Shown one piece after another: positions 1-59,962 of a DNA stretch of 64,000 nt. The position numbers were made by a program, and so were the translations under genes. The notes below the pieces were generated by a model that saw only the letters and a list, made by a program, of their open reading frames with translations, had not been told where the DNA came from and made no database searches. Position 1 is the first letter of the stretch; every line of letters begins with the position of its first letter. The stretch comes from a virus: positions 1-64,000 of IMG/VR virus record IMGVR_UViG_3300005546_000004; one strand, written 5' to 3'.

Positions 1-632
1 TCCATCTTCTGGGCGACCCACTGGTAGGCGTTCTCGACCTCGCAGGCGTACGGCGCCTGCGCTTGGACCAGCGGCAGGTGGTGGTCCGCCAGTCGGCGCG
101 TCAGCACCGTGTCGAGTCCGCCGTAGAACCAGTAGCCCGGGTAGTCGCACGGAACCGTCGCCCAGGTCCAGCCGTTCTCGGACATGGCCCGCTCGAGTAC
201 GGCCTGGCCGGCGCGAGCCCGCGGATCGACCCAGCGCGCGGCCTGGTTCTTCAGCGCGCGGGACATGTGCGGCTCGAGGATGTGCGAGGCGACGCCGACG
301 TCGCGGATCCGGTGCTGCGGCAGCGCGACGCCGGCCTTTGCGAGGAACGACCAGTCGAACTTCGAGTTCATCATGTCGATCGGACCGTTGAAGATCTTGA
401 TCGCCTCGGCGAACAGGCCGGACCAGCGCTCCCACGGCAGCGACCACCCGAGTTGCGCGTCTCCGATCTGGACGAGTCGGACGTAGTCGCCCGAGTGCCA
501 GTAGAAGCCCGTTCCCTCGGTGTCGATCGCCAACGGCTCGCCGGATTCGGCGTACGAGCGCATCCACGCGGCGAACGCCTCGACGTCGTCGAGGTTGTCG
601 ACGAGCCGGACCTGGACGTCGTCGAGGCTCAC
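1..632 (-). CDS. polA: DNA polymerase I (family A), N-terminal part only (3'-5' exonuclease domain); gene continues beyond the window start
   Basis: Reverse-strand translation from GTG at 632 gives VSLDDVQVRLVDNLDDVEAFAAWMRSYAESGEPLAIDTEGTGFYWHSGDYVRLVQIGD..., a Pol I exo-I type motif. The GTG start overlaps the stop of the downstream deaminase by 4 nt. Not in the ORF table because it runs off the window. Confidence 0.75.
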   Translation of the reverse strand, partial: MSLDDVQVRLVDNLDDVEAFAAWMRSYAESGEPLAIDTEGTGFYWHSGDYVRLVQIGDAQLGWSLPWERWSGLFAEAIKIFNGPIDMMNSKFDWSFLAKAGVALPQHRIRDVGVASHILEPHMSRALKNQAARWVDPRARAGQAVLERAMSENGWTWATVPCDYPGYWFYGGLDTVLTRRLADHHLPLVQAQAPYACEVENAYQWVAQKM

Positions 633-1141
633 TCGGCGGCCTCCGTCACGAACACCTCGAGGCCGCAGTCGCGCAGAAAGTCATACGAACCCTCCGCACG
701 TCGGTGCGCGTGCGCCTTGACGGCGTCGACGCGGACGTACAGCAGTCCCGAGTTGGCGATCAACTTAGCGCACGTAAAGCAGATGTGGCTCGTAACGTAG
801 ATCCAGCCGCCAGACCGTAGCGATCGATCGCTCATCATAAGCGCGTTGGCCTCGGCGTGCAGCGCCGGGCAGTCGACGTAGCCGGGTGAAAGATCTGAAA
901 AACCTTTGACAGCTCCACTGGCGCGTTCACACCATCGATCACACGACAGATCGGAGTGTTGAAAGCCGCGCGGTGGACCGTTGTAGCCCTCGCCGATGAT
1001 CTTTCCCTCGGCGTCGACGATCAGCGCGCCGACTCGGTCGCGGACGCACAGGCTGCGCCGGGCGAGCTCGCGCGCCATCGCGAGCCGCGTTACGTGCCAG
1101 TTGGGTCGCCACTCGCTGTGCTTAGCCGTGGATTGCGTCAT
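629..1141 (-). CDS. dCMP (deoxycytidylate) deaminase
   Basis: HAEANAL...CxxC zinc-binding cytidine/dCMP deaminase signature (SPGYVDCPALHAEANALMM ... ICFTCAKLI). Confidence 0.85.
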   Translation of the reverse strand: MTQSTAKHSEWRPNWHVTRLAMARELARRSLCVRDRVGALIVDAEGKIIGEGYNGPPRGFQHSDLSCDRWCERASGAVKGFSDLSPGYVDCPALHAEANALMMSDRSLRSGGWIYVTSHICFTCAKLIANSGLLYVRVDAVKAHAHRRAEGSYDFLRDCGLEVFVTEAAE

Positions 1142-1892
1142 AGAACCACCCGTCGCCGTCGCGGAGCTCGGACAGCTCCTCCGGAGGTACCTCGCCGTAC
1201 GCGAGCTGTCTGCAGAGTCGCTGGATCGCCGTCAGGTCGTCGCCGAGCCGGCCGATTCCGCCGGGTTCGACCGCCCGCTCGTCGGGGACGTCGGACTCAC
1301 CGCGCGGCGGTTCGACGACGCCGTACGACGCCTCCAGGTCCGAGCGGTATAGGTGCATCGACCAGGCCGTGTGTGTGTATGTACCCGGCAGCAGGTCGAG
1401 GATCGTGCACAGCGTCCACTGCAGCTGCGCGAACTGGAACAGGTCGTACGGCAGTCCGAGCCAGACGTCGTTCGAACGCATGGTTACGCGCATGTTGAGC
1501 TGGTCGAGACCGTAGCGTCCGCCGCGGGAGAAGCCGACCGCGACGGTGCACGGGTAGTCGAGCTTACCCGGTTCGTTGTCCAGCGCCGGGTCCCACAGCG
1601 TGACGACGGCCTGGCGCGTGTCGGGGAACCGGTGTAGCTTATCGACGATTCCGGCGAGCTGGCGACCGTACGACGTCCGCGGGCCGTACGCGCCCCAGAA
1701 CTGGCCGTTCGGTTCGCGGAAGCGCGCGAACTGCGGCGCCAGGTCGACCAGCCACTTCGGATCGGAGAAGCCGCCGATCAGCTGCAGCGCCTCCGCGGCG
1801 GCGATCCGCGAGCTCAGTCCCGGCCGGCAGCCGGCCGGCAGCGCGTAGCTCGGCGACTCGAGCGCTACCGTGACGTCCGGTAGTTCAATCAC
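1122..1892 (-). CDS. Thymidylate-synthase-family pyrimidine C5-(hydroxy)methylase; Asp at the ThyA N177-equivalent position suggests dCMP rather than dUMP specificity (dCMP hydroxymethylase-like)
   Basis: Aligns to ThyA: VVTLWDP..LDYPCTVAVGFS..QLNMRVTMRSNDVWLGLPYDLFQFAQL against SAWNV..[34 protein letters not shown]. Catalytic Cys is present. PYD replaces PFN (N177D). Probable GTG start at 1892 forms a GTGA overlap with the upstream gene stop; the table ORF extends to 2192 with an Arg-rich false N-terminus. Confidence 0.7.
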   Translation of the reverse strand: MIELPDVTVALESPSYALPAGCRPGLSSRIAAAEALQLIGGFSDPKWLVDLAPQFARFREPNGQFWGAYGPRTSYGRQLAGIVDKLHRFPDTRQAVVTLWDPALDNEPGKLDYPCTVAVGFSRGGRYGLDQLNMRVTMRSNDVWLGLPYDLFQFAQLQWTLCTILDLLPGTYTHTAWSMHLYRSDLEASYGVVEPPRGESDVPDERAVEPGGIGRLGDDLTAIQRLCRQLAYGEVPPEELSELRDGDGWFYDAIHG

Positions 1893-2974
1893 CGAGCCGT
1901 TGCGACTGGTACCTTCGCGGCCTCGGCGCCGGACGCGTTCGACGACCTCGACGTACGCTTGGCGCCCCGTAGGAGCTTCGATGAGAGTGGCCACGATCCG
2001 TTGTCTCCTCCGTACGCCGCGGTTGCCCAGATCAACATACCGTACCCGACCTGCATCGAGTGGTGAAACCGCCGGACGTACTGTGGGTGCGGCACCGTCG
2101 CGACTCCGTAGTCGGCCGGGCGCAGCTTGGACCACGCGCGTTGGGCGCTGCGGCCGAGCGTCACAACCGACGGTCGACCGAGTACGTTCCACAGCTGAAG
2201 CGGGTCGTCGACGTCGCAGGCGTTGGCGATCCCAAGCCGCGCGTCGTGCCGAAACTCACTACTGTTCGAGGCGAATAGCGCCGACAGTAGGTAGTGGCCC
2301 GACGTGGCGGGAAACGGCACGAACGCCGGGTCGAGATTCAGCTCGGGGTGAGGATCGTCGCCGAGTCCGTGACGCACCTCGCCGAGCAGCAACACCTCCG
2401 GGTTCGGCGGTCCGAGGTACGTGCGCGCGAAGTCGAGACGCGCCGCGTCGAACTCGGCGGCGCGCGCCGCATCGACGATCCGGAACACGTCGCCGTTGAC
2501 GCCGGACTCCCAGTTGAAGTGCACGACCGGCAGCTGCGTCAGCCCGAGCACCCGGCGGTACAGATTGTCGACCTGCGGCAGTTCGTCCGCCTGCGACTCG
2601 GGCTCGCCTCGGTCGCGGTAGACCTGGCGGTAGCGATCTGGGTACTGCGAACATAGGACGGCGACGGCGCCCTGACGGCGTATATAGGCCTCGATCGCCC
2701 ACCACGCCGGCGGGTCGAGCTGACTCGTCCGGCCGCGGACGATCGGGTAGACGTACTCGCCCCAGTGCCACCGATCCAGAATCCAGTGAATCCCGGTGCC
2801 GGGCCGGTACGGCTCGACCGGACGCAGGTACTCGTCCAGGGGGTGACGCGTCGGCACGCTGGCTTTGATCCGGTGAACCCGACACGCCGGATCGTCGCGC
2901 AGTAGCAGCTCCTCGAGTCCGTCGGCGAGCGACGTCTTGCCCGCCCCGTCGGGGCCCTCGAGTATTATGAACAT
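1889..2974 (-). CDS. dTMP/dNMP kinase (P-loop MFIILEGPDGAGKTS) fused to a roughly 180-aa C-terminal domain of unknown function
   Basis: Canonical thymidylate kinase N-terminus starts at the internal ATG at 2974. An AT-rich start context overlaps the upstream ORF by 10 nt. The product (361 aa) is much longer than a typical TMK. Confidence 0.7.
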   Translation of the reverse strand: MFIILEGPDGAGKTSLADGLEELLLRDDPACRVHRIKASVPTRHPLDEYLRPVEPYRPGTGIHWILDRWHWGEYVYPIVRGRTSQLDPPAWWAIEAYIRRQGAVAVLCSQYPDRYRQVYRDRGEPESQADELPQVDNLYRRVLGLTQLPVVHFNWESGVNGDVFRIVDAARAAEFDAARLDFARTYLGPPNPEVLLLGEVRHGLGDDPHPELNLDPAFVPFPATSGHYLLSALFASNSSEFRHDARLGIANACDVDDPLQLWNVLGRPSVVTLGRSAQRAWSKLRPADYGVATVPHPQYVRRFHHSMQVGYGMLIWATAAYGGDNGSWPLSSKLLRGAKRTSRSSNASGAEAAKVPVATAR

Positions 2975-3486
2975 ATAAATCGGTGCCCGACACGCGGGTG
3001 CAGCGCCTCGTCCTCGGCGCGCAGCACCTCGGACAGCCGGTACAGCCATCCCGTCCAGTAGACGGGTACGGGTAGGTCGTCCTCCCGCAGGTCGACGCCG
3101 GCCCGGTAGTTGCGGTGGTAGGCGCCGGTGACCTCGGCCGTCGAGCGGGCGCGGCCGAACCAGCGCCGCTGGACGTTGTGCCGCCCGCGGTACGTTCGGC
3201 GGCGCTGGGCGTTCTCGAACCGAACGAGCGCCGGAAGCACGCGGCTGAACGCCGACGACGCGCGCGCCCGCGCAGCTGGGAGCGCCGCTCGGACGAACTC
3301 GGTGGCGCGGTTGATCCACTCGTCGCCGTCGGTGGTTACTTGAATGGGTAGCCACGGCTCGACGGGTCCGTAGGTAAACGGCAGTTCGGTGCCGTCCGGT
3401 AGGACGATGAGGCCCCGCTCGACCGGCGGGTCGGACGGGGCCTCATCATGTTCGGCGAAGGGCGGGTCTTGGATCGGTGCGGTCAC
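2965..3486 (-). CDS. hypothetical protein
   Basis: 173-aa ORF in the operon frame, with tight 10-nt overlap coupling to the kinase gene. Confidence 0.5.
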   Translation of the reverse strand: MTAPIQDPPFAEHDEAPSDPPVERGLIVLPDGTELPFTYGPVEPWLPIQVTTDGDEWINRATEFVRAALPAARARASSAFSRVLPALVRFENAQRRRTYRGRHNVQRRWFGRARSTAEVTGAYHRNYRAGVDLREDDLPVPVYWTGWLYRLSEVLRAEDEALHPRVGHRFICS

Positions 3487-5496: not shown

Positions 5497-6249
5497 CTAC
5501 TGTGGAGTAGTAACTCCGTGGAGCAGATAGTCGAAGATCCGGTCGCCCTCCCGGACGTCCTGAACCTCGGTCGAGTTCGCCTGCTCGCGGGCGAACTTAA
5601 CGGCTCGCTGCAGCTTCTCGACGCGCTCGACCAGCGCGGTTACCTCGGTGGCCGGCAGCGCGCCCGAGAACTTGATCGTCTTCCACGTACCGACGGGCAC
5701 GTCCTCGGTGTACATCTGCACCTGCGCCGGGTGACGATCCGTCGCCTCGGCGAGGACGTGGTTCCGCGGTACCTTCTTCGTCCGGACGGTCTCGACCGGC
5801 TCCGAGCGAAACACGCCGGTGTTCGCGTCGAACGTCCACGTCTCGGCCGGATCCAGCGTCGGCAGCTTCGCGAAGAACGTCCGCAGGTCGGTCAGCTGCT
5901 TCTCCAACCACAGCAGGTGGGTCGCCGGAACGGACCGCAGCAGCGTGACCCCGTCGACGACGACGTCCGCCAGCGCCGAGCAGTTGGTCACGTCCCGCGT
6001 CGCGGTCACGTCGAACAGCCGCACCAGCGCCCGGCGGACCTGGTTGAGTACGTCCGTCGTACTGACCTGGACCTTGGTGGACTCGGGTGGCAGCTGCTCG
6101 CCGTCCTCGTCCCTCGGCCGGTACGTCCGCGAGATGCCCGCCAACGGTCCGGTGCGCTGCGCGGCGTGGTGCGCATCGGTCAACAGCGTGAACGCGCCGG
6201 CCTTGACACCCTTCTCGATCGCGATGATCTGGTTGAGCTTCGTCGTCAC
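5497..6249 (-). CDS. hypothetical protein
   Basis: 250-aa ORF with a GGAGA ribosome-binding site upstream of the ATG (MTTKLNQ...). Confidence 0.6.
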   Translation of the reverse strand: MTTKLNQIIAIEKGVKAGAFTLLTDAHHAAQRTGPLAGISRTYRPRDEDGEQLPPESTKVQVSTTDVLNQVRRALVRLFDVTATRDVTNCSALADVVVDGVTLLRSVPATHLLWLEKQLTDLRTFFAKLPTLDPAETWTFDANTGVFRSEPVETVRTKKVPRNHVLAEATDRHPAQVQMYTEDVPVGTWKTIKFSGALPATEVTALVERVEKLQRAVKFAREQANSTEVQDVREGDRIFDYLLHGVTTPQ

Positions 6250-7249: not shown

Positions 7250-9715
7250 GTGACAACTGTACCACAGCCTACCTGGACTCCGATCGAGCTGGGAAGAGAC
7301 GTCCGGGCGGAGGCGCTGCGGCTCGCCGGCGAGGACGTCCGCGTCTTCCCGGTGTGGGGAATCCGGCGAACCCGAGCGCCGGCGCTGGGCACCGGCGAAC
7401 CGTCCTGGGAGAACCGGTGTGGCTGCGGCAACCCGGCGTGCCCGAACCCGGCGAAGCACCCCGTCGGCGCGCTGGTACCGAACGGACACAACGGCGCCGT
7501 CACGGACGCCGGGATCGTTGAGGCGTGGTTCCGCGTACCGGACGACCCACCCGACTCGTGGGTGCCGTACAACCTGGGCGTCGCGACGGGTCGGGGACTG
7601 CTGGTCGTCGACGCCGACGTCAAGCAGCCCCGCCCGGACCTTCCCACCGGACTCGAGGTCCTAGACGACTGGGAGACGTGGACGCAGGGTACCGGGCTGC
7701 CGCGCCGGACGCGGACGATCCAGACCGGCTCCGGCGGCGCGCACCTGTGGCTGGCGTACGACCCGGCGCTGCGGATACCGGCCCGCAACCGCGTGCTGCC
7801 GGGTATTGACCTGAAGGCCGACGGCGGCTACGTCCTGGCGGCCCCGTCGGTGCACGCCTCCGGCGCCCGCTACCTGGTCCGGGATCCCTCGGCGCCGATC
7901 CTGGACGTTCCGGACGACCTGCGGTCGTGGCTGCTCACCGTGCGGGGCGGCCGCTACGTCACCCGGCGCGCGCGGGATTCGTCCGGTCCGGTACCGGACG
8001 ACTACGACTTTCGGCGGATCGTCGCCGGCACGGGCTGCCCGGCGGGGCACCGGGACTACTTCGTCAACGACCTGTGCTTTCGGCTCAGGCGTAGCGGACT
8101 CGCGGTCGAGGACGCCGCCTCGGCGCTCCGGCGCGAGTGGCTGCGCATGGAGCAGCCGTCGGGCGACGAGTTCCCGTGGGACGCGTGCCTGTACAAGCTG
8201 CGCCGGGTCTGGGACGAGGTTTCCCCGGAGGAGATCGTAGACATTCCGGCGTGGCGGCCGCCGAATCTAGGTACCGTAAACGCTACCGTAAACGTAAACT
8301 CGCAGGTAGACGCCGCACCGGACGGTCTACTGCTCAGCGCCGTCGAGGCGCTGGACCGGCCGGACCTGACGTTTACGCCGTCGGATACCGGCAACGGCAT
8401 CCGGTTCGCCCAGCGGATGCGGGACGTCGTGCGCTGGTGCGTCGGCGAGCAGCGCTGGTACCTGTGGGACGGCTCGCGCTGGGCGCCGGACGAACTCAAC
8501 CGGACGCTGCTGCTGACGGAGGAGGTCATCAAGGACCTGTACGTCGAGGCCGCCCGGCTGAACGGCGAGCGCGACCGGACGAACCTGGAGAACTGGGCCC
8601 GGACGTCGCAGGCCGCCGGCCGGCGGCGGGCGATGCTGGAGCTGGCCTCGGCGCAGCCCGGACTGGCCGTCAGGCCGGACCAGCTGGACGCGGACGCGTG
8701 GCTGCTGGTCGTCGCCAACGGAACCGTCGACCTGCGCGCCGGGACGCTGCGCCCGTCGCAGCCGGAGGACCTCTGTACTCGAAGAGCGGACGTCGCGTTC
8801 GACCCCGGGGCGTCGGCGCCGCTGTGGGAGCGGCACGTCGAGTTCGTCACCGGCGGCGACCGGCTGCTGGCGGACTGGCTGCGCCGGGCCGTCGGCTACA
8901 CGCTCACCGGGCTGACGGACGAGCAGAAGCTGTTCTTCCTGTGGGGCAACGGCGCCAACGGAAAAAGCACGTTCGTCGACGTCGTCGCCGGGGTCCTCGG
9001 GACGTACGCGACGCAGGCGGACGAGAACCTGCTGACCGGTTCGGGGGGCCACCCGACGCAGCTGGCGGACCTGCGCGGCGTCCGGCTGGTCGTCGCGGAC
9101 GAGACCGACCGGGATAAGAAGCTCGCCGAGCAGCGGATCAAGATGCTGACCGGCCGCCGGATCAAGGCCCGCTTCATGCGTCAGGACTTCTTCGAGTACT
9201 CCCCGCGGTTCAAGCTGTGGGTCTCGGGCAACCACAAGCCGGAGATCCGCGGCAACGACCTGGGGATCTGGCGCCGGATGCAGCTCGTCCCGTTCGCCTC
9301 GACGCTGGACGCCGACCGGAAGATCCTCGGCTACGAGGACGTACTGCGCCGCGAGGCGGCCGGGATCCTGAACTGGGCGTTGGTCGGACTGGCGGACTGG
9401 GTCAAGCTCGACGGACTTGGCGAACCGGAGGCCGTCCGGTCGGCGACCCGCGAGTACCGGGAGGAGGAGGACTCGATCGGGCTGTGGCTCGCCGAGGTCG
9501 CCGAGCTGGGCGCCGCGGACTCGGAGGTCGACAACGCGCGGCTGTACGACTCGTACCGGTGGTGGTGCCACGCCAACGGCGTCCAGGACGTCCGGTCGAA
9601 CGTCGTCCTCGGCCGCGAGCTGGCGGCGCGCGGACTGGCGCGCGGGGTGTTACGGATCGGCGGCCGGCAGGTCAGAATCTGGCGCGGAATTCGACTGAAC
9701 ACGGCGGATCTGTAA
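7250..9715 (+). CDS. Bifunctional primase-polymerase (prim-pol N-terminal domain) / SF3 helicase (D5 / P4-type primase C-terminal NTPase)
   Basis: N-terminal RVFPVWGI... prim-pol-like region. Walker A LFFLWGNGANGKSTFVDVVAGVLG with DETD Walker B, typical of P4/D5 family primase-helicases. 821 aa. Confidence 0.85.
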   Translation: MTTVPQPTWTPIELGRDVRAEALRLAGEDVRVFPVWGIRRTRAPALGTGEPSWENRCGCGNPACPNPAKHPVGALVPNGHNGAVTDAGIVEAWFRVPDDPPDSWVPYNLGVATGRGLLVVDADVKQPRPDLPTGLEVLDDWETWTQGTGLPRRTRTIQTGSGGAHLWLAYDPALRIPARNRVLPGIDLKADGGYVLAAPSVHASGARYLVRDPSAPILDVPDDLRSWLLTVRGGRYVTRRARDSSGPVPDDYDFRRIVAGTGCPAGHRDYFVNDLCFRLRRSGLAVEDAASALRREWLRMEQPSGDEFPWDACLYKLRRVWDEVSPEEIVDIPAWRPPNLGTVNATVNVNSQVDAAPDGLLLSAVEALDRPDLTFTPSDTGNGIRFAQRMRDVVRWCVGEQRWYLWDGSRWAPDELNRTLLLTEEVIKDLYVEAARLNGERDRTNLENWARTSQAAGRRRAMLELASAQPGLAVRPDQLDADAWLLVVANGTVDLRAGTLRPSQPEDLCTRRADVAFDPGASAPLWERHVEFVTGGDRLLADWLRRAVGYTLTGLTDEQKLFFLWGNGANGKSTFVDVVAGVLGTYATQADENLLTGSGGHPTQLADLRGVRLVVADETDRDKKLAEQRIKMLTGRRIKARFMRQDFFEYSPRFKLWVSGNHKPEIRGNDLGIWRRMQLVPFASTLDADRKILGYEDVLRREAAGILNWALVGLADWVKLDGLGEPEAVRSATREYREEEDSIGLWLAEVAELGAADSEVDNARLYDSYRWWCHANGVQDVRSNVVLGRELAARGLARGVLRIGGRQVRIWRGIRLNTADL

Positions 9716-17215: not shown

Positions 17216-18100
17216 GTGTTCATTACCGTTTTGATCGTTGTACTGTTCGTCCTCGCGATCGGTTGCCTGTTCAAGGGCACCGTCCGGCTCGACGGCGATC
17301 CGTTTCGGATTCGCTGGATCGGCGTCGTGCTACTCGGCGTCGGCTTTCTCGTCCTCGGACTCGCCACGATCGTCGTCGTCCCGACGAAGAACGAGGGCGT
17401 CGTCATCGCGTTTGGCAAGCCCGTCGACACGATCCACAACGGCATCCACGTGGTCGCGCCCTGGGAGGACGTCGCCGACTACGACGCGACGGTTCAGACG
17501 CTGGATATGTCCGGCAACGACGAGACGCCGACGCTGCACGTCCGGATGCTCGCCGGCCGGGCGACCGCCGACGTCAACGTCACGCTCAACTGGCGCCTCG
17601 AGGGCGACATTCAGCAGCTGCACAAGGACTGGCGCGAGTTCTCGCACATCCAGAAGTTCGTCGTCATTCCCCGGCTGCAGGACGCGCTCAACAAGGAGTT
17701 CACGGACTACGATCCGCTCGTCGCGCTGAAGAACGCCGACGCGAAGCCGGTGACGATGTCCGAGATGGAGATCCGCGTCGCCGAGCGGCTGCAGCGTAAC
17801 CTGCCCGCCGGCGTGTTCATCGACCACCTGCAGATTCCCCTGGTTATCTACCCGCCGGTCATCCAGGACGCGTTGAACGCGTACCAGAAGGAGCTCGCCA
17901 ACACGCAGGTGGCATTGCAGCAGAAGTCCACCGCGCAGGCGCAGAAGGACGCGCTGGACATCCTGGCGCAGGCTAGGATGTCGCCCGAGGCGTTCCAGCA
18001 GCAGTGCCTGATCATGACCGAGCGGCTGGCGCAGCAGGGTAAGCAGATTTCGCTGACGTGGTCGTGCGTCGCCGGCGGCGCCGGAGTCGTCGCCAAGTAG
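17216..18100 (+). CDS. SPFH / band-7 (stomatin-prohibitin-HflK/C-like) membrane protein
   Basis: N-terminal TM helix followed by VVPTKNEGVVIAFGKPVDTIHNGIHVVAPWEDV...TVQTLDMSGNDETPTLHV..., matching the SPFH core pattern. GTG start after AGAAGGAGAGGGAC. Confidence 0.7.
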   Translation: MFITVLIVVLFVLAIGCLFKGTVRLDGDPFRIRWIGVVLLGVGFLVLGLATIVVVPTKNEGVVIAFGKPVDTIHNGIHVVAPWEDVADYDATVQTLDMSGNDETPTLHVRMLAGRATADVNVTLNWRLEGDIQQLHKDWREFSHIQKFVVIPRLQDALNKEFTDYDPLVALKNADAKPVTMSEMEIRVAERLQRNLPAGVFIDHLQIPLVIYPPVIQDALNAYQKELANTQVALQQKSTAQAQKDALDILAQARMSPEAFQQQCLIMTERLAQQGKQISLTWSCVAGGAGVVAK

Positions 18101-18201
18101 AACCTCCCTCTTCCATGAGGGTTGGATGGGGTGGTAAGAGAGGCCGGAGCCGCCGCGGAGGTTCCGGCCTCGCCCTAGGCGCGAGCGAGAGTGAGGAAGA
18201 G

Positions 18202-18666
18202 ATGAGCGACGTCATTCAACTGCGCTCCGAGTACATGCGGGCCGCGTTCGGCGACCTGGACTACGTCGCCGAGGAGCTGCGCCACCGGCTGGACGCGGAC
18301 TTTCGCGAACCGATCGTCGTCGACACGCTCGTCGGCACGGGACTGTCCGGCGCGCTGGTCGTACCCGGCGTCGCACGGATCCTGAAGCTGAACTGGGTCG
18401 TCGTCCGGAAGCCGAACGAGGCCAGCCACGCGTCGTACCCGTTCGAGGGAACGCTCGGCCGACGCTGGCTGTTCGTCGACGACCGGGTCGAGACCGGCGC
18501 GACGCTGCGCCGGGTCCGCGAGGCGATCGACGACGGCGCGCGCCGGTACGGACCGATCGACGACACGGTCTTCAGCGTCTACGGCGGACGCCGGCAGCTG
18601 TTCGCGACGACGTTCGTCGGCTACTACGTCTACATGTACGCGCGCCTGAGCCTGCACGAGGATTGA
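18202..18666 (+). CDS. Type I phosphoribosyltransferase (PRTase) domain protein
   Basis: PRPP-binding motif WLFVDDRVETGATL (consensus hhhhDDhhTTGgT). 155 aa. ATG after AGTGAGGAAGAG. Confidence 0.65.
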   Translation: MSDVIQLRSEYMRAAFGDLDYVAEELRHRLDADFREPIVVDTLVGTGLSGALVVPGVARILKLNWVVVRKPNEASHASYPFEGTLGRRWLFVDDRVETGATLRRVREAIDDGARRYGPIDDTVFSVYGGRRQLFATTFVGYYVYMYARLSLHED

Positions 18667-18685: not shown

Positions 18686-20200
18686 GTGCAGACCAAGACG
18701 CGGGCGCAGCTGTTCGCCGAGCTCGCGGATCCGCCCGAGCGCCGGTGGCGCAACGACCCGATCCGGTGGGCGATCGAGCGCGCCCGGATCGAGATCTGGT
18801 CGAAGCAGCGCGAGATCCTCGAGGCCGTCCGGGACCACCCGCGGGTAGCGATCCCGTCGTGCCACTCCGCGGGTAAGTCGTTCACCATGGGCTGCCTAAC
18901 GTGCTGGTGGCTGGACGTTCACCCGATCGGCGAGGCCCGGGTAATCAGCACGGCGCCGACCTCGAAGCAGGTCGACGCCGTGCTGTGGAATGAGATCAAC
19001 CAGCACCACGCGCGCATCGGCCTGCGCGGCCGCACGAACAAGAACGAGTGGTACTTCGGCCGGTTCATGGCCGGGCTGGGGCGTAAGCCGCCGGACCACG
19101 TCGAGGCCGCCTTCCAGGGACTGCACGCGCTCTACCTGCTGGTGATCTTCGACGAGGCGTACGGCATCCCGAAGCACCTGTGGGACGAAGGCTCGTCGCT
19201 GGCGTCGAACCGCAACGCGCGGATGGTCGCCGTCGGCAACCCGGACGGACCCGGCGAGTTCGCCGAGATCTGCAGGCCGGGCTCCGGTTGGCACGTCATT
19301 CCGATCTCGTACCGGGACACGCCGAACTACACCGGTGAGCAGGTATCGGACCGGCTGCGGGACATGCTGATCTCGCTGGACTGGGTCGAGGACCGCCGCC
19401 GGAAGTGGGGTGAACAGTCGGCGCTGTTCCAGTCCAAGTGTGAGGGCAGGTTTCCGGCCGAGGGTTCGCCGTGGGACGTCATTCCGCACGCGTGGATCGC
19501 CCGGTGCCGTTCGCTGGAGCTGGTCGCCGACGGACCGATCGAGGCCGGCGTCGACGTCGCGGCCGGCAACGACCGCACGGTGGTCACGGTGCGGCGCGGT
19601 CCGGCGGTGCTGCACGTCGAGTGGTTCGTCGACGCGGACCCGATGAAGACCGTCGGCCAGGTCGCCAACGCCCTGCGCGACTGGAAGGTAACCAGCACGA
19701 AGGTCGACTCGATCGGCGTCGGCTGGGGCATCTACGGCCGGCTCAGGGAACTGTCCCGCCGGGTCAGTCCAGACGGCGGGGTGCACGACTCAGACGTGGT
19801 GCCGATCAACGTGTCGCTGGCGCCGACGCCCGGCAACGAGGAGCGGTTCTTGAACCGGCGCGCCGAGATGTGGTGGCTCGGACGGGAGCTGTCGCGCCTG
19901 CAGCGCTGGGACCTGTCGCGGCTGCCGGAGGACCTGCAGGACGACGTCATTCACGAGCTGGCGGCCCCGCGCTACGAGATCCTCGACTCGAAGGGCCGCG
20001 TGAAGATCGAGCCGAAGGACGACATCATTAAGCGACTCGGGGTCTCGCCCGACCTGGCGGAGTCGCTGCTGCTCGCGTTCGTTCCGGCCAACTGGACGGC
20101 CGAGACCAACACGCAGGCGCTGGTCGACGCGCCGAGCCTGCTGGAGTCGCTGTCCGCGTTCGACCAGGTCCACGCCGGCTCGTGGTGGCTGCGCCGGTAG
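18686..20200 (+). CDS. terL: Terminase large subunit
   Basis: ATPase Walker A-like CHSAGKSF; C-terminal nuclease domain (DSIGVGWGIYGRL). 504 aa. A GGGACC-GGAA-GGTCCC hairpin follows the stop. Confidence 0.85.
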   Translation: MQTKTRAQLFAELADPPERRWRNDPIRWAIERARIEIWSKQREILEAVRDHPRVAIPSCHSAGKSFTMGCLTCWWLDVHPIGEARVISTAPTSKQVDAVLWNEINQHHARIGLRGRTNKNEWYFGRFMAGLGRKPPDHVEAAFQGLHALYLLVIFDEAYGIPKHLWDEGSSLASNRNARMVAVGNPDGPGEFAEICRPGSGWHVIPISYRDTPNYTGEQVSDRLRDMLISLDWVEDRRRKWGEQSALFQSKCEGRFPAEGSPWDVIPHAWIARCRSLELVADGPIEAGVDVAAGNDRTVVTVRRGPAVLHVEWFVDADPMKTVGQVANALRDWKVTSTKVDSIGVGWGIYGRLRELSRRVSPDGGVHDSDVVPINVSLAPTPGNEERFLNRRAEMWWLGRELSRLQRWDLSRLPEDLQDDVIHELAAPRYEILDSKGRVKIEPKDDIIKRLGVSPDLAESLLLAFVPANWTAETNTQALVDAPSLLESLSAFDQVHAGSWWLRR

Positions 20201-47312: not shown

Positions 47313-47313
47313 G

Positions 47314-48513: not shown

Positions 48514-48523
48514 GAGGCCGTCG

Positions 48524-54553: not shown

Positions 54554-54900
54554 GTTGATCCCCTCTCGGGTTTCGGCGGCAGCCGCAGACTCCGATCCGT
54601 CGGCACCGCAACGCCGGCGGAGTTGAGCGCGTTCACGAGGTCCTCGTTGTAGCGCAGCATGTCCGTACGCTGCTGGTTGACCATCGTGTGAACCTCGGCG
54701 ACGTTGGCGACCGCCTGGCGGGTGGCGCGCAGCGTCGGAATGAGTACGCTGACCGCGAGGACGAGACCACCCACGGCGGTGATCGCGGTCGCGACCGCGG
54801 TGATGACGACCGCGAATTCGGCGGGCACGACTGCGTCCCCGTTTGAACTTTTAGCCGTCGCTCGGCGCGGTCTGCGCCCACACGTGCGCGCCGTTCTCAC
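54550..54900 (-). CDS. membrane protein (possible second holin or lysis-associated protein)
   Basis: Hydrophobic core VVPAEFAVVITAVATAITAVGGLVLAVSVLIPTL. Confidence 0.4.
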   Translation of the reverse strand: MRTARTCGRRPRRATAKSSNGDAVVPAEFAVVITAVATAITAVGGLVLAVSVLIPTLRATRQAVANVAEVHTMVNQQRTDMLRYNEDLVNALNSAGVAVPTDRSLRLPPKPERGST

Positions 54901-56362
54901 GGCGCCTCTCGACCAAGCCGTCCCGGCGCAGCCGGTACAGGCTCAGGTAGACGAGCTTCGGATCGATGCCCGTCTTCTGGACGAGCGCCTCGCGGGTTGC
55001 GGGCTCGGGGCCGATCGCGGCGAGAACCTGCGCATCCCGGTCCTGGGTTTCCTGCGGCCGCGGACGGCCGCGCCGTGGAGTCGCCTCGATTGTCGGTGCT
55101 TCAGTCACGATTGTTCTCCTCGTTACCTTTACTTCACTATGTTCTACGGTATCACACCGGGTGAGCGCGGTCTTCCAGTCGTTCGTGACGTCGATCAGCC
55201 ACTCGTCGTCGCTGATCGGATCGCCGACGTACGAGCCGGGATCGCCCGACAGGGCGCGCGACGCCCACGTGGCGATCCACCGGCCGCAGTCGACGGTGAT
55301 GCCCTTTCCCCAGGTCATGAACAGGCCCGAGACGCGGCGCAGCGGCTCGATTTTCCAGTCGTCGGGGAAGCCGAGGATCCGCGCGGCCTCGCGGTGCGTG
55401 AATGTTCGGCGCAGCTGCCAGTGGACGCCGTTCAGCATGCCGGCGCCGGTGATGACGCGCGCCGGGCCGTCCGGGTTCCACATCGTTGGGGTGTTGTACC
55501 CCTGGAAGAAGTCCTGTCCCTTCAGCTTGTCGACCAGGTGCGACCACGACGACGGCAGGTCGCCGTGCAGGTCGAAGTACCGGCGCGTTACCTTCTGCGC
55601 GTGCTCGCCCGGGTGCCAGTCGATTTCGTTAAGCAGTTCGCGCGTCCGGCGCGTGTTCGGATTGTTCAGCGCGACGTGCCCGTCGACGCGCCCGATGGGC
55701 GAGCGTAGCTGTTCAGCGTACCACGACGGCTTCGAGTCCCAGTACAGCTGCGGCGCCCAGCACGGCTCGTCGAGCGTGGCTAGGTCGCCGATTACGTCGC
55801 GCAGGACCGGCAGCCGGTCGGGCTGCGGCCGCTCGACGCCGAACGGCACGCGGGAGGCGACCCAGAAGTAGCGCCGGCGCTGGGCGGGACCGCCGACGGA
55901 GTACGCGTTGTGGAGCACGTGGTGGAGTGCCCACTTGTCGCCGGTCAGCTCCTCGAGCCGCGCGCGCAGCGCCTGCATCAGCGAGCGGCCCTGCGTGAAC
56001 GCTAGCTGGACGGACTCGAAGATCGCGATCTGGGGTCGGACGCGCGCCGCGTACTCGGCGAACGCCCACATGCAGGTGTTGATCTTTGAGTCGACGCCGC
56101 GGAACTGCTTCGACGACAGCACGGAGAAGCCCGAGCACGGCGGGTTGCCGAACACCAGGTCCGCGTTCGGCGCCGACCACGCCTCCGGTTCGACGGTCTC
56201 CGACGACCAGTCGTCGCCGAGTAGGTGACGGTTGGCCTCGCAGTTGGCGACGCCGAAGCCACCCCTCATCTCGCGCTTACCGATCAGTTGAAAGCCGGCC
56301 TGCACCACGCCGAGTGTAAAGCCGCCCGCGAATCCCTGGCAATCGACGGCAGTATATATCAC
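54851..56362 (-). CDS. DNA (cytosine-5)-methyltransferase with C-terminal winged-helix domain
   Basis: Motif I-like VDCQGFAGGF, motif IV FGNPPCSGFS, ENV-like region; 503 aa. Confidence 0.8.
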   Translation of the reverse strand: MIYTAVDCQGFAGGFTLGVVQAGFQLIGKREMRGGFGVANCEANRHLLGDDWSSETVEPEAWSAPNADLVFGNPPCSGFSVLSSKQFRGVDSKINTCMWAFAEYAARVRPQIAIFESVQLAFTQGRSLMQALRARLEELTGDKWALHHVLHNAYSVGGPAQRRRYFWVASRVPFGVERPQPDRLPVLRDVIGDLATLDEPCWAPQLYWDSKPSWYAEQLRSPIGRVDGHVALNNPNTRRTRELLNEIDWHPGEHAQKVTRRYFDLHGDLPSSWSHLVDKLKGQDFFQGYNTPTMWNPDGPARVITGAGMLNGVHWQLRRTFTHREAARILGFPDDWKIEPLRRVSGLFMTWGKGITVDCGRWIATWASRALSGDPGSYVGDPISDDEWLIDVTNDWKTALTRCDTVEHSEVKVTRRTIVTEAPTIEATPRRGRPRPQETQDRDAQVLAAIGPEPATREALVQKTGIDPKLVYLSLYRLRRDGLVERRRENGAHVWAQTAPSDG

Positions 56363-56366: not shown

Positions 56367-56951
56367 TTACTGTATCACGATTCGTTCAAGTTGGTCTTCG
56401 GGTACGATCGTTATTCGACGATCGATTTTACCCGAATCACCGACCGTCGTGATCCAGTAGTAGAACTTCTGCTCTTGTTCACACCAACCGTCGACGGTCG
56501 GATGTGGCGGTTTATCAATGCGTGTGGTGTTACACCTTACCGCCGGGTCATCTAGGACACGTTTACACCGTGGACACTTCGTCGAGACCGCGTCATATCC
56601 CTCGGCGGCGCGTCGTTCGTTGACGCCGCGCTTGGTCAGGTAGCCCTCGTACAGCCGATCCGCGGCCGCCTCGGGCGTAAGGCCGGTGGCGAGCAGTAGG
56701 TTCATTAGGAAGTGCCACGCGTCGACCAGCTCGCCGACGTACGCATCGACATTGATCCGGTTGGAACCCAGCGCCCACGGCTTCCACTGGGTTTCGTCCA
56801 GCGCCTCGCCGAGCTCGACCGTCGCGGCAAGCACCATGTCCTTGACGTACTGAATCCGCTCCCCGGGTAGCATACGCTGCGGCACGCGGCCGTACGACTG
56901 GAACTGCAGCTTCGACTGCAGCTCGAACATCTCGGCGAGACGGTCGTTCAT
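56367..56951 (-). CDS. MazG-like nucleoside-triphosphate pyrophosphohydrolase with C-terminal zinc ribbon
   Basis: All-alpha NTP-PPase motif VKDMVLAATVELGEALDETQWKPW (EExxE/D). CPRCKR...C. The start ATG overlaps (ATGA) an upstream small membrane ORF. Confidence 0.65.
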   Translation of the reverse strand: MNDRLAEMFELQSKLQFQSYGRVPQRMLPGERIQYVKDMVLAATVELGEALDETQWKPWALGSNRINVDAYVGELVDAWHFLMNLLLATGLTPEAAADRLYEGYLTKRGVNERRAAEGYDAVSTKCPRCKRVLDDPAVRCNTTRIDKPPHPTVDGWCEQEQKFYYWITTVGDSGKIDRRITIVPEDQLERIVIQ

Positions 56952-57091
56952 CGGGTATTCACCACCATCCACGCGCCGGCCCAGCACACGCCGATGACGA
57001 CGGCCGCGACCACGACGAAGAACGCGATCAACGCGACTACGCCGGCGGCGCCGGATCCGGATGCCTCAAACACTTTTCGCGGTTCACTCAC
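56950..57091 (-). CDS. small membrane protein
   Basis: GTG-initiated 46-codon ORF (ALIAFFVVVAAVVIGVCWAGAW) coupled by GTGA/ATGA overlaps to both neighbours; not in the table. Confidence 0.3.
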
Positions 57092-57790
57092 TTAGTCACT
57101 CCCTGGTAGGCCTCGACGGTTCCGACGTCGTACGACGACACGGGCACCGTCACGTTCTTCTCGTCGAGCATAAACATGTTCAGGTACGGACCGATCAGCA
57201 GCTCGCCGAGGTTCGGATCGAAGTCGTCCAGTAGATTTTGCAGAACAGTCTCCATGCGGGGACGCCAGCCGACGAACGGCCCGACCCAGCAGGTAACGGT
57301 CTCGGTCGTCCGGTTGAGGTACGGCCGACGATCCTTGCTCTCGATCCACCTCGGCTGAACCGCGCCGTCGACGAGCCATGTAAATCGCAGCGCGTCGTCG
57401 CGGTTGAACTCCTTGACGCCGACGGCCGTCTCGTGCGCCGATACCGCGAGCACGTCCTCGACGGTCGACACGTTGTCGCTGAGGAGCACCAGCACGCGCT
57501 TCGATCGACCGGATACCCGCAGGCCGAGCGCGAGCGCGTGCCCGGGTCCGTACGGCTGTCGCTGGACGATCAGCGTCGCATCGCGGTTCGGGCCGAGCGC
57601 CGCGTCGATCGCGGCCGCGTTCTCGGGCGCGACGACGACCACCGGTTCGGCGACGTTGACCTCGCGCGCCAGGTCGTACGCCCGGCAGACCAGCGGAATG
57701 CCGTCGATCGGCAGCAGCGACTTAAAGAACGGCGGCGCCAGCTCGCCGACCCGGGTGCCGCGTCCCGCGGCGAGGATTACAGCATCCACG
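57088..57790 (-). CDS. Sugar-phosphate nucleotidyltransferase (MobA/GlmU-like NTP-transferase fold)
   Basis: GTG after GGAGGAG; VDAVILAAGRGTRVG signature. The table ORF is extended by an Arg-rich false N-terminus. Confidence 0.65.
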
Positions 57791-58622
57791 TGTTCAGCTC
57801 CTCCAGCAGCACACCGGTCGCCACCGAGATCATCGTCGCTTGGTCGTCCGCGTCCCGGCAGGTGCGCGCGCCGCGCAGCATGTGAATCACCGAGTAAAAC
57901 AGCGACGCCCGGACCTGGTCGACGTTGAAGCCCGAGTACGGATCGCCCTGGGCGATCCAGTTCAGCACCGTCGATATCCGATCGACGATCACGTCCCGCT
58001 TCGGCGCCGCGCCCGCGTACCGGATCTGTTCGTACCCGGCGGCGGACTGGATGAACCGGCCGAAGTCGACCACGTCGAGGCTCGGCAGCGCCGGACACGG
58101 CGGAATCGCGTCGACGAACACGACGTGACCCCCGTCGTCGCGCATGACGTTGTCGAGGATCGGATCGCCGTGCGTCCACACCAGCTGCACCGGCCAGACG
58201 ACCTCCGAACGGAGCTCGTGCAGCCGCGTCAGCGCGGCGTACGCGCCGAGTGGCAGGCACAGGTCGACGACGTACCGGTCGAGGACGCGCTCGTTCAGCG
58301 CGACGAACGGGTTGCGGGCCCACTGGCGGTGCGGCGTCTGAAGCGAGTGACTGATCTTACGGTAGATCCGCCAGCACTCCTCGAGCAGGTGCATCGGGTC
58401 GTCCAGAAACTCGGACAGGTCGACGTCGTGGAGCCGGTTCATCTCGTAACCGCCCGAGGTGACGTGCTTGACCTGCGGCAGGTGGTTGTTCGGGTAGTCG
58501 CGTAGCCACAGGCCCTGCTGGCGGACGCGGGTACCGGTTGCCGCCGTGTCCAGCTTGGTCACCTTGTCGTCCTCGATAACGATCACCGCAGCCGAGGCGC
58601 CGCGCGGCACGTTGCTCACAGT
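57777..58622 (-). CDS. APH/ChoK-family kinase (anomeric sugar kinase / aminoglycoside phosphotransferase-like)
   Basis: GTG after GAGGAGAGG; catalytic HGDPILDNV (HGDxxxxN) and DFG-like VDFGRF. Confidence 0.6.
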   Translation of the reverse strand, partial: TVSNVPRGASAAVIVIEDDKVTKLDTAATGTRVRQQGLWLRDYPNNHLPQVKHVTSGGYEMNRLHDVDLSEFLDDPMHLLEECWRIYRKISHSLQTPHRQWARNPFVALNERVLDRYVVDLCLPLGAYAALTRLHELRSEVVWPVQLVWTHGDPILDNVMRDDGGHVVFVDAIPPCPALPSLDVVDFGRFIQSAAGYEQIRYAGAAPKRDVIVDRISTVLNWIAQGDPYSGFNVDQVRASLFYSVIHMLRGARTCRDADDQATMISVATGVLLEELNTWML

Positions 58623-59962
58623 CCGAGCCTCTCCTCGATCAGCTTCAGGTAGCGCAGCTCCTCCACCGCGCGCTCGAAGTGCGCGCGCTGCAGGTTGACG
58701 ACCCACCGCCAGGTTTCCTCGTCTCGAGTCGCCGTCGCCAGGCGTCGCTGAAGCTCCTGCGGCGTTCGAACGCGCAGGAAGTCGCGCAGCTCCGCCGGCG
58801 CGTCGCCGAGAACGTGGTTCTGGTCGTCGTAGTCTGGGTGGAAGAAGCAGACGACGCCGGCGGCGAACGCCTCCCACGGCTTCGCGGTGGCCCAGCCGGA
58901 ACCCGACGCCGGCAGCGTGATCGTCGCCCGGACGCGGTGCAGCAGCCGCGGGTACTCGGCGATCGGAATCGGGTCGATCCGGCGGCCCAGGACGCCGATC
59001 GAGTCGGCCGACCAGTGGCCGTAGACGAAGTCCGGATCCAGCGGCAGCACCCACTTCTTGAGCACGTTGACGCGGGCCTTCGCCGGGTTGACCTGGCGGC
59101 GCGTCTCATTGACGACGACCCCGAAGTTGTACGGCCGGTTGAAGTCGTCGCTGAACTTGACCGTATCGCCGAACGGCGTACCCGGCACCAGCGACGAGAC
59201 TTCCAATCGGGCGTAGATGCTGCGCGACTTGGCGGTCCAGACGTTGCCGTGTTCGATCCAGCCCATATTTTCGGCAACTTTAAGGTCTTCGTCAGTCGCA
59301 AACCGCTTAAAAGCTTCGTGATTTGGATCGCCGCCACGTTCGTGCTTGACGTTGTTCCACTGGTTGTACTGCGCGAGCACCGGGTGCCGCCACGGCCACT
59401 TACCGTCGCGGTACTTGACGTAGTTGCGGGCGTCGGCGTTGAGCAGCACCTCCTCCCGCGCGATGGGATCTGCGTCGCGCCACCGGTTGATGCCCCGCAG
59501 CAGGTACGAACCGTACAGGTTCGCCCAGTCGTACGGCTTGGTTAGCTTCGACCGATCCTTAATCGACAGAAGTGGCGAGTTGGTCGTGCCGTGTTGGCCG
59601 AGCCACATGACGATTCCGTCCAGGTCCGCGATCGTGTCACCCGTCACTGCGTCCAGTAGGTCGCGCAGCTTCAGGTGATCCTCGATCGTTAGGTTTTGGT
59701 AGTTCAGTCCGCGCTCGTTGATCCGACGGCGAACCTCGGGTGCCCACGATGTCCACGGATTGACGACGTTGTCGGGCAGTCCGACGTCCGCGCGGTGCTC
59801 GCCGGAGTTGCGACCGATCAGCACGAAGTCGACGTCCGGGTGCCGCTCAGCGAGCAGCTTCAGCGTCGGCACCATCTCGGTGTCGCCGCCGAGGCTGCCG
59901 CAGTTCTCCAGTCTCAGCGGCATCGAACGGCCGAGCTTCGCGTAACCTATACGTTTTCGCAC
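58616..59962 (-). CDS. hypothetical 448-aa protein; possible GT-B-like glycosyltransferase (candidate DNA or protein glycosyltransferase)
   Basis: GTG after GAGGGAG. C-terminal TLPASGSGWATAKPWEAFAAGVVCFFHP resembles the GT-B donor-binding E/G-rich motif. Weak call. Confidence 0.3.
   Translation of the reverse strand: MRKRIGYAKLGRSMPLRLENCGSLGGDTEMVPTLKLLAERHPDVDFVLIGRNSGEHRADVGLPDNVVNPWTSWAPEVRRRINERGLNYQNLTIEDHLKLRDLLDAVTGDTIADLDGIVMWLGQHGTTNSPLLSIKDRSKLTKPYDWANLYGSYLLRGINRWRDADPIAREEVLLNADARNYVKYRDGKWPWRHPVLAQYNQWNNVKHERGGDPNHEAFKRFATDEDLKVAENMGWIEHGNVWTAKSRSIYARLEVSSLVPGTPFGDTVKFSDDFNRPYNFGVVVNETRRQVNPAKARVNVLKKWVLPLDPDFVYGHWSADSIGVLGRRIDPIPIAEYPRLLHRVRATITLPASGSGWATAKPWEAFAAGVVCFFHPDYDDQNHVLGDAPAELRDFLRVRTPQELQRRLATATRDEETWRWVVNLQRAHFERAVEELRYLKLIEERLGL

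Follow-up and report, generated by a model that had tools for sequence, protein, structure and literature searches.

Predicted genes for cytosine hydroxymethylation and DNA glycosylation, including a kinase fused to a uracil-DNA-glycosylase-fold domain, in an uncultured clade of high-GC phages

Replacement of cytosine at the nucleotide level, followed by attachment of a sugar, is well characterised mainly in the T4-like phages of Proteobacteria and in a few others. In the T-even system, which glucosylates 5-hydroxymethylcytosine (5hmC, or hmC), the parts are the dCTPase gp56, the dCMP hydroxymethylase gp42, the deoxynucleoside monophosphate kinase gp1, the dCMP deaminase Cd and the alpha- and beta-glucosyltransferases of T4. 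Here we describe the same logical set of parts in a 64,000-nucleotide stretch of viral DNA, positions 1 to 64,000 of the IMG/VR record IMGVR_UViG_3300005546_000004, which we refer to as the window. Shared with the T-even phages are an all-alpha nucleoside triphosphate (NTP) pyrophosphatase, a ThyA-family protein with the residue pattern of gp42, a deoxynucleoside monophosphate kinase, a dCMP deaminase and a glycosyltransferase (GT) of the GT-B fold resembling the T4 beta-glucosyltransferase (beta-GT). Unlike in T4, the kinase is TMK/YorR-like rather than gp1-like and is fused to a uracil-DNA glycosylase (UDG) fold domain, and the window phage makes its own nucleoside diphosphate sugar (NDP-sugar), whereas T4 uses host UDP-glucose. 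The clade to which the window belongs also has a conserved C5 methylase and a probable high-GC actinomycete host, and is unrelated to the Straboviridae.

On balance, we consider it probable that the DNA of this phage contains 5hmC that replaces cytosine at the nucleotide level and is then glycosylated on the DNA, a route of which we infer every enzymatic step. The pyrophosphatase would lower dCTP and dUTP and yield dCMP, on whose C5 the ThyA homologue would place a hydroxymethyl group from methylene-tetrahydrofolate. The kinase domain would convert 5hm-dCMP to 5hm-dCDP, host nucleoside diphosphate kinase would complete 5hm-dCTP, and the family-A polymerase of the phage would incorporate it. 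The deaminase would turn part of the dCMP into dUMP, thereby feeding host dTMP synthesis and draining the dCTP pool, and the fused UDG domain would link the supply of precursors to the policing of bases at the replication fork. After replication, the beta-GT-like enzyme would transfer a sugar to the hydroxymethyl group, the donor being an NDP-sugar made by a phage sugar 1-kinase and nucleotidyltransferase. The first-pass annotation had read the window as a T-even-like toolkit for cytosine hypermodification, and the ThyA residue signature, the make-up of the NDP-sugar module and the co-occurrence of the genes in relatives all support this reading, which remains a prediction.

Similar to the window, the arabinosyl-5-hydroxycytosine (5hoC) clusters of phages RB69 and DLP3 and the hexosyl-5hoC cluster of RL38J1 (Lee et al., NAR 2026, PMC13326640) have an N177D ThyA homologue adjoining a TMK/YorR-like kinase. 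They also share with it a dCTPase, an APH-like sugar kinase with a MurU/LicC-like nucleotidyltransferase, and GT-B transferases, and some relatives of the window additionally have a fused transferase-kinase and a SIS isomerase, like clusters of this type. In contrast to the RB69 and DLP3 5hoC synthases (gp48 and gp80), the window ThyA homologue does not carry the D169N change, so that the predicted handle is hydroxymethyl and not hydroxyl; and whereas the window GT is closest to T4 beta-GT, the reported top matches of the RB69, DLP3 and RL38J1 transferases are bacterial GTs (PMC13326640). Thymidine hypermodification (5-HMUDK with aGPT-Pplase or AADT, in phages M6, ViI, PhiW-14 and SP10) also employs a ThyA-family hydroxymethylase with Asp143 and a nearby P-loop kinase. 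The M6 enzyme, however, keeps Asn177 and acts on dUMP, and unlike in those systems, no aGPT-Pplase, pyridoxal-phosphate or radical-SAM genes were found in the window phage. We regard the pathway logic of the window phage as T-even and its sugar supply as RB69/DLP3-like, with the kinase type, the kinase-UDG fusion, the conserved C5 methylase, a variable sugar cassette and the lineage and probable host as the points of difference.

The ThyA-family gene (1122..1994, minus strand, 290 aa) encodes the predicted dCMP 5-hydroxymethylase and matches PF00303 (E 1.8e-18, 67.1 bits against a gathering score of 24.3). To place its active-site residues, it was aligned using MAFFT with its 120 nearest homologues, E. 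coli ThyA and T4 gp42 (123 sequences; the gp42 sequence used is identical to that of PDB 1b49). The catalytic cysteine (Cys146 equivalent, YPCT), the retention of which had been noted in the first-pass annotation, is present in the window protein and in 120/120 of the closest homologues. The proposed exchange of Asn177 for Asp was likewise borne out, as GLPYD aligns with the G(L/V)PFN of ThyA in both pairwise and multiple alignments; pairwise HMMER alignments set it opposite GVPFN of bacterial ThyA and GAVSD of the CMP hydroxymethylase MilA. Asp169 and the Asp at the N177 position, both as in T4 gp42, are also found in the window protein and all 120 homologues, as is an Asp at the Leu143-equivalent position three residues before the catalytic cysteine. 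Among the related IMG/VR loci described below, all 37 ThyA matches with a readable motif (37/37) have Asp at 177, and since the residue is common to these and to the 120 closest homologues, chance does not account for the substitution. LDYPC and MRSNDVWLGLPYD in the window protein correspond to SDFMC and MRSNDVVFGFRND in T4 gp42; the MRSND motif is identical in the two proteins, and the window protein has Thr after the catalytic Cys.

Exchange of Asn177 for Asp shifts the substrate of ThyA from dUMP to dCMP, and Asp177 together with a residue other than His at 147 is enriched in contigs shown by experiment to carry modified cytosine (PMC8670742). Methyl products are associated with a bulky Leu143 and hydroxymethyl products with Asp or Glu at this position, while an exchange of Asp169 for Asn marks the flavin-dependent 5-hydroxy-dCMP synthases and has been proposed as diagnostic of them (PMC13326640). 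At positions 143, 169 and 177, E. coli ThyA (product dTMP) has Leu, Asp and Asn; M6 gp58 (5hm-dUMP) has Asp, Asp and Asn; RB69 gp48 (5ho-dCMP) has Glu, Asn (in RSQN) and Asp; and T4 gp42 (5hm-dCMP) has Asp at all three. The window protein also has Asp at all three, a pattern that among the characterised enzymes aligned equals that of T4 gp42 only, and its predicted product is 5hm-dCMP. With the catalytic Cys, Asp143, Asp169 and Asp177, the signature residues of a T4-type dCMP hydroxymethylase are all in place. The best score of the protein against any NCBIfam thymidylate synthase model was 58.6 bits against a cut-off of 174.55, the cut-offs of the other models being 108-427, and the window encodes neither a further ThyA nor a ThyX, and just one nucleotide kinase. 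Because of the T4-type residue pattern, the thymidylate synthase scores below cut-off and the lack of any other ThyA or ThyX in the window, we predict that the ThyA homologue is a dCMP 5-hydroxymethylase.

Ordinary dTTP supply, in which the deaminase makes dUMP, the ThyA homologue dTMP and the kinase dTDP, the GTs serve the virion or envelope, and the DNA is canonical save for Dcm methylation, appears very improbable to us. The gene triad does form the classical dTMP pathway, public annotations agree in naming the ThyA-family and kinase genes thymidylate synthase and thymidylate kinase, the window encodes no alternative ThyA or ThyX, the Dcm gene is conserved, and a separate late cluster holds GT2 and GT4 genes and a sugar C-methyltransferase. 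Against this, the Asp at N177 is invariant in >150 homologues and is the change that switches dUMP to dCMP specificity (PMC8670742), another Asp replaces the water-excluding Leu143, and the protein scores at most 58.6 bits where the dTMP synthase equivalog cut-offs begin at 108.

A different C5 product of a dCMP-acting ThyA homologue, either 5-methyl-dCMP as in XP12 or 5-hydroxy-dCMP as in RB69, would change both the base and the sugar linkage. Speaking for it, N177D alone turns mutant ThyA into a dCMP methylase (PMC8670742), some ThyA homologues have unexpectedly proved to be flavin-dependent hydroxylases (PMC13326640), and the NDP-sugar modules are similar to those found in the clusters for 5hoC arabinosylation. 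Nevertheless, all tested 5hoC synthases have Asn at position 169, where the 120 homologues all have Asp, the Asp at the Leu143 position is shared with the hydroxymethylases T4 gp42, M6 gp58 and MilA, and the MRSND motif is that of gp42, so we judge such a product quite unlikely and retain 5hm-dCMP as the prediction.

The dCMP-type signature extends to cultured Gordonia phages and to a Pseudoxanthomonas phage. At the L143 position as well as at the N177 position, Asp is present in the "thymidylate synthase" of the Gordonia phages GMA2 (L002), Forza (L083) and GodonK (L084) and in the "deoxyuridylate hydroxymethyltransferase" of Pseudoxanthomonas phage PW916 (L085). These proteins are probably misnamed, their residues predicting dCMP rather than dUMP as substrate. 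The GMA2 paper holds no data on DNA modification.

The start of the ThyA-like gene, given as 1892 in the first-pass annotation, is most likely the GTG at 1994 instead. Homologues of 278-283 aa cover 100% of the 290-aa version, a GGAGGAG ribosome-binding site sits 10 nt upstream of this GTG, and a start at 1892 would lose the conserved phosphate-binding arginine (Arg21 equivalent). The gene therefore overlaps the 3' end of the kinase gene by 106 nt in a different frame. Translational coupling through GTGA overlaps, which had also been proposed, does not apply at the junction of the ThyA-like and deaminase genes, where the overlap is 20 nt (deaminase ATG at 1141, ThyA-like stop at 1122-1124); GTGA does occur at 1889-1892 and at the junction of the deaminase and polymerase genes (629-632).

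The neighbouring dCMP deaminase was correctly recognised at first pass. Encoded at 629..1141 on the minus strand (170 aa), it matches PF00383 (E 1.1e-12) and phrog_174 (E 1.6e-29) and has the HAE and C-x-x-C zinc motifs, and its position after the ThyA-like gene is kept in relatives. The all-alpha NTP pyrophosphatase, of the dimeric dUTPase/dCTPase family, is encoded at 56367..56987 on the minus strand, its start possibly being the ATG at 56951. It matches PF08761 (dUTPase_2; E 4.7e-12, 46.9 bits against a threshold of 22.9) and phrog_18650 (E 4e-31). The MazG-like NTP pyrophosphatase mentioned in the first-pass annotation thus exists as a gene of this family, its preference for dCTP being a candidate activity only and the enzyme a candidate dCTPase/dUTPase.

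The possible GT-B protein of the first-pass annotation proved to be a 448-aa glycosyltransferase encoded at 58616..59962 on the minus strand, a predicted DNA 5hmC glycosyltransferase. By fold, it is closer to T4 DNA beta-GT than to any other GT-B protein in the PDB. Searched against all PDB sequences, the profile of its family matched only T4 beta-GT, with an E-value of 0.17 over 76 residues that is not significant alone, and its Pfam match is below threshold; yet 616 homologues of 50-80% identity were found. No relatives were detected in 185,579 bacterial and archaeal species genomes, which accordingly offer no prophage or host clue, and GenBank phages gave one partial match. The GT gene sits between recombination genes and nucleotide-pool genes. 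For the envelope role that ordinary dTTP supply would assign to the GTs, this location near replication genes, the closer likeness to T4 beta-GT than to any envelope GT and the lack of bacterial homologues are all unfavourable.

Directly beside the GT gene lie the two genes predicted to supply its sugar, which the first-pass annotation had paired and which are indeed both present. The first encodes an APH/choline-kinase-like phosphotransferase (57777..58610, minus strand, 277 aa; PF01636, E 2e-4; HGD...N and D-x-x motifs), a predicted sugar 1-kinase. The second encodes a sugar-1-phosphate nucleotidyltransferase (57088..57789, minus strand, 233 aa; PF12804, E 5e-16; PF00483, E 4e-9) whose GTG start at 57789 gives a 13-nt overlap with the sugar kinase gene, as in relatives, and whose best NCBIfam similarities are to the GlmU N-terminal, AglF and RmlA-type enzymes. 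The RB69/DLP3 cytosine-glycosylation clusters contain an NDP-sugar module of the same composition, which has been proposed to build UDP-arabinose (PMC13326640). BLAST comparisons of the sugar kinase with the kinase half of RB69 gp52, of the nucleotidyltransferase with RB69 gp53 and of the window nucleotide kinase with RB69 gp45 gave weak scores of 29-32 bits, which are consistent with this likeness and are not evidence for it.

We also considered plain 5hmC without glycosylation, possibly with partial replacement, the beta-GT-like and NDP-sugar enzymes acting on an acceptor other than DNA. GT-B folds are very common, the sequence similarity to T4 beta-GT falls short of significance by itself, the phage has other GTs, like actinophages that glycosylate their virions, and cultured Gordonia phages have the ThyA(Asp) and kinase genes without the GT. 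This alternative seems unlikely to us nonetheless, as T4 beta-GT is both the top PDB GT-B by fold and the sole profile match, the GT gene lies among recombination and nucleotide-pool genes and stays near the ThyA and kinase genes in rearranged genomes, and the adjacent sugar cassette varies as it does in DNA-sugar systems. The last two points come from relatives of the window.

The clade is represented by hundreds of protein clusters and by 72 IMG/VR contigs of ~55-105 kb. These 72 loci were retrieved by means of the GT alignment and searched with the window proteins. Where at least 9.5 kb of sequence was available upstream (44 loci), the ThyA-like gene was found in 37/44, the dCMP deaminase in 39/44, the kinase domain in 26/44 and the UDG domain in 23/44; the upstream misses probably result mostly from the flank limit. 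Of the 50 loci whose downstream flank reached at least 4.5 kb, 45/50 contained the dUTPase_2 gene and 48/50 the adjoining Dcm gene. In three distant, rearranged genomes (L069, L078 and L079; GT identity 30-37%), no more than 1-4 kb separates the GT gene from the kinase and ThyA(Asp) genes.

Between its GT and pyrophosphatase genes, each locus has a slot of variable length, from 65 bp to 2.4 kb, and the NDP-sugar genes within it differ from phage to phage. It holds an RGP-like protein (of the UDP-arabinopyranose-mutase family) in 20 loci, an NAD-dependent epimerase in 18, a nucleotidyltransferase in five, an APH-like kinase in four, a fused transferase-kinase like RB69 gp52:53 in four, a SIS sugar-phosphate isomerase in five and a HAD phosphatase in one. 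Example slots are those of L006 (20862-20966), L009 (11656-13655), L063 (11293-13394) and L024 (11355-13418), and the replacement sets in such slots consist of an RGP-like protein with an epimerase; a 502-aa nucleotidyltransferase-kinase fusion with a SIS isomerase; and a kinase with a HAD phosphatase and a nucleotidyltransferase. As judged from their gene content, the swapped cassettes suggest that different phages may place different sugars on cytosine. A constant transferase with an exchanged sugar supply is what would be expected of a DNA-sugar system under selection by host defences.

We would like to note that several observations weigh against glycosylated 5hmC. The related loci are mostly syntenic, so the co-occurrence of the genes reflects shared ancestry in part, although the closeness of the genes in the rearranged genomes and the exchange of sugar genes in the slot reach further than this; and the exact clade has no cultured member. 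Kinase, ThyA and deaminase in this order also make up the textbook set for dTTP synthesis. The product rules for L143 and D169 are correlations from a limited set of tested enzymes, and close homologues of the pyrophosphatase are annotated as dUTPases, dCTP versus dUTP specificity not being readable from sequence. The phage NDP-sugar could also be used for virion or envelope glycosylation by a second glycosylation cluster, which lies on the plus strand after the tail genes (46012-51315). This late cluster encodes two GT2 proteins (46012-46692 and 48637-49605), a GT4 protein (50236-51315) and a sugar-type C-methyltransferase (47200-48513) with Methyltransf_13, _23 and _14 domains, which we take as the architecture of an NDP-sugar C-methyltransferase. 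Finally, the conserved and apparently intact C5 methylase is hard to square with complete replacement of cytosine.

This C5-cytosine DNA methyltransferase (54851..56362, minus strand, 503 aa) has a C-terminal winged helix and matches PF00145 (E 1.2e-19) and DprA_WH (1e-4), in agreement with the Dcm-type enzyme of the first-pass annotation, and is a neighbourhood member conserved in relatives. Motifs I, IV, VI and VIII (FAGGF, PPCSGFS, FESV and QRRRY), as assigned by eye, are present and all look intact. Cytosines that have not been replaced are the probable substrate of the Dcm enzyme, in which case replacement would be incomplete; the role of this enzyme is the least explained part of the set. 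A route in which 5hmC would arise on the DNA from 5-methylcytosine, by Dcm, a TET enzyme and the GT, was also considered but gained no support, as no Tet_JBP domain was found in the scanned open reading frames (ORFs) of at least 200 aa, the small ORFs being only partly scanned.

The TMK-like kinase with an extra domain, as described at first pass, was confirmed as a 361-aa P-loop kinase with ~150-180 additional C-terminal residues (1889..2974, minus strand). Residues 1-175 (nt 2450-2974) form the TMK/YorR-like nucleotide kinase domain, residues ~180-330 (nt 1985-2437) a UDG-fold domain, and residues 331-361 a disordered tail that overlaps the ThyA-like gene. Both halves are conserved across at least 390 metagenomic proteins. 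An AlphaFold2 model built from 67 sequences reached a predicted local distance difference test (pLDDT) score of 89.6 and a predicted template modelling score of 0.86; the tail, with a pLDDT of ~50, is of low complexity and poorly conserved, and many homologues stop earlier, at a conserved W-x-x motif.

The kinase half has the P-loop fold, the Walker A motif and the DR(Y/W/F) motif of TMK-like nucleoside monophosphate kinases. It is homologous to the stand-alone "thymidylate kinase" that adjoins the ThyA(Asp) gene in GMA2. Because similar kinases adjoin the ThyA homologue in the DLP3, RB69 and RL38J1 clusters and the window encodes no other nucleotide kinase, this domain is a candidate 5hm-dCMP kinase. 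A role as a 5-hydroxymethyluracil (5hmU) DNA kinase (5-HMUDK) was rejected, as the window kinase shares only the P-loop with M6 gp54 (hhalign alignment of 19 P-loop columns, probability 66%).

The additional domain has the alpha/beta fold of UDGs in the predicted structure. A MAFFT alignment with the Thermus thermophilus (Tth) UDG (1ui0, sequence verified) and the Tma UDG aligns five motifs: motif A G-[ED], a Phe-containing loop, the base-reading N251, LGxxA, and the His-Pro of motif B (H296-P). R201, F218, N251 and H296 are invariant in the 67 sequences, G198 is nearly so, and N251 is followed by the invariant Asp254 and Asp256. A PDB profile search with the domain gave no match, hhalign against the Tth UDG gave a probability of 0.4%, and the Pfam UDG match is weak. 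Since detection by sequence mostly failed, the assignment as a UDG domain rests on the predicted fold together with the MAFFT motif alignment. Compared with family-4 UDGs and UdgX, the domain has no Fe-S cysteines (neither an N-terminal CxxC nor a conserved four-Cys set for a 4Fe-4S cluster was found in the alignment), its motif A reads G-[DE]-x-R rather than GE(A/G)PG, and its Asn is followed by Asp254 and Asp256.

A profile of the UDG domain retrieved 1462 cluster representatives (at 50% identity) among 1.84 billion proteins. Nearly all of the best 150 of these are 305-365 aa long with the domain at ~175-320, so this UDG subfamily appears to be almost exclusively kinase-fused. Two members of the clade (L022 and L073) have no room for a UDG domain beside the kinase, so that in part of the clade the kinase occurs alone and the domain counts as an accessory rather than a core step. 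Among GenBank records, the fused kinase occurs only in the metagenome-assembled DSL-LC01, whose paper is silent on these genes. Bacillus phage G gp315 (331 aa) and two proteins of uncultured phages (285 and 330 aa) match both domains of the model in BFVD (Foldseek E 5e-15 to 8e-12), and on these structural matches the fusion architecture may also occur outside the clade. The kinase-UDG family is large and has no described function.

The UDG domain keeps the family-4 UDG residues for motif A (acidic), base stacking (Phe), base reading (Asn) and motif B (His), which are needed for base flipping and probably for catalysis. It is therefore most likely, albeit on weak grounds from the model and its residues, a uracil or 5hmU glycosylase that would flip and excise these bases from DNA, joined at the replication fork to the kinase that supplies the precursor. 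A bolder idea, which we hold to be rather improbable, is that the fusion is a new bifunctional enzyme acting on DNA, where it would flip out a pyrimidine (C or U, or 5hmC or 5hmU) and then either excise it or present its hydroxymethyl group for phosphorylation by the P-loop domain. In the excision variant, it would police base composition or attack cytosine-containing host DNA. In the phosphorylation variant, the conserved enzyme with the C5-methylase fold, which attacks C6 with a thiolate, could carry out group transfer on cytosine, by analogy with 5-HMUDK and AADT. If this idea were true, cytosine hypermodification would gain a new enzymatic step, and the clade that carries it may be a natural target of the Brig1-type defences discussed next.

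UDG domains fused to family-A polymerases occur in phages with modified DNA (SPO1-like and SP-15-like; bioRxiv 10.1101/2025.03.26.645540); there the partner is the polymerase, whereas in the window it is a nucleotide kinase, and a U or 5hmU glycosylase at the fork would be a parallel to these polymerase fusions. Brig1, a host defence enzyme of the UDG superfamily, excises alpha-glucosyl-hmC; it comes from soil DNA of probably actinobacterial origin, and its homologues are mostly from Actinobacteria (PMC11078745). Compared by description only, Brig1 and the window domain belong to the same superfamily and would share a link to glucosyl-hmC DNA, yet Brig1 is a host enzyme that destroys modified phage DNA and the window domain is phage-encoded and kinase-fused. 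It is plausible that the clade is a natural target of actinobacterial Brig1-type glycosylases.

In the literature searched, the coverage of which was incomplete, we found no report of an actinophage with hmC or glycosyl-hmC, nor of a kinase fused to a UDG domain. If glycosylated 5hmC is indeed present, the modification logic of the T-even phages would extend to a large, entirely uncultured clade of high-GC phages, whose DNA would be a natural substrate for Brig1-type glucosyl-hmC glycosylases. The beta-GT-like family could also supply enzymes for labelling 5hmC with sugars other than glucose. The cultured phages GMA2, Forza and GodonK, as well as PW916, carry the dCMP-type signature and are directly testable.

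The window has a G+C content of ~67% and covers nearly all of a phage genome of ~67 kb, as metagenomic contigs of the same genome measure 66,881 and 66,992 bp. At its left end, a tight minus-strand operon runs from a 173-aa ORF of no assigned family (2965-3486) through the genes for the 361-aa P-loop protein, the ThyA-family protein and the deaminase to the start of the family-A DNA polymerase gene. The polymerase gene begins at the GTGA overlap with the deaminase stop, and only its N-terminal part is included (3..632, minus strand), being cut by the window start; the complete gene, present in Logan and ENA assemblies of the same genome, encodes 591 aa with PF00476. We treat the polymerase as context outside the modification set. 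In another assembly of the same genome, the operon continues unbroken through the polymerase, a SNF2 helicase, a PD-(D/E)XK nuclease, an AAA_24 recombinase and a DUF669 protein. Since it thereby joins genes at the right end of the window, the genome is circular or circularly permuted, and all genes listed in the first-pass annotation therefore sit on one contiguous minus-strand arm. Flanking this modification arm are genes for an 821-aa primase-polymerase/D5-helicase fusion (7250-9715), a DUF7873 protein (5497-6249, E 3e-110) and a DUF932 protein (51649-52590).

No near-identical DNA was found among GenBank phages. The window encodes a homologue of SsgA (22362-22820; PF04686, E 6e-10), which according to Pfam acts in sporulation and cell division of Streptomyces, and related contigs contain WhiB and DUF397 genes. 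Together with the G+C content, these genes suggest that the hosts may be actinomycetes, and the SsgA homologue possibly serves in phage manipulation of host division.

In the virion region, the MuF-like head protein (25146-26705) has a C-terminal ADP-ribosyltransferase exoenzyme domain (PF03496, E 7e-19), and the product of the next gene (26681-30448, 1255 aa) also ends in such a domain (PF03496, E 3.5e-18). Both look like polymorphic toxin cargo of the MuF type. Directly after them lies a gene for a 2'-5' RNA ligase/LigT-like phosphoesterase (30449-31156; PF13563, E 6e-14). Elsewhere, an SPFH/Band-7 protein (17216-18100) and a phosphoribosyltransferase-like protein (18058-18666; phrog_2068, E 3e-27) are encoded upstream of a 504-aa ORF (18686-20200).

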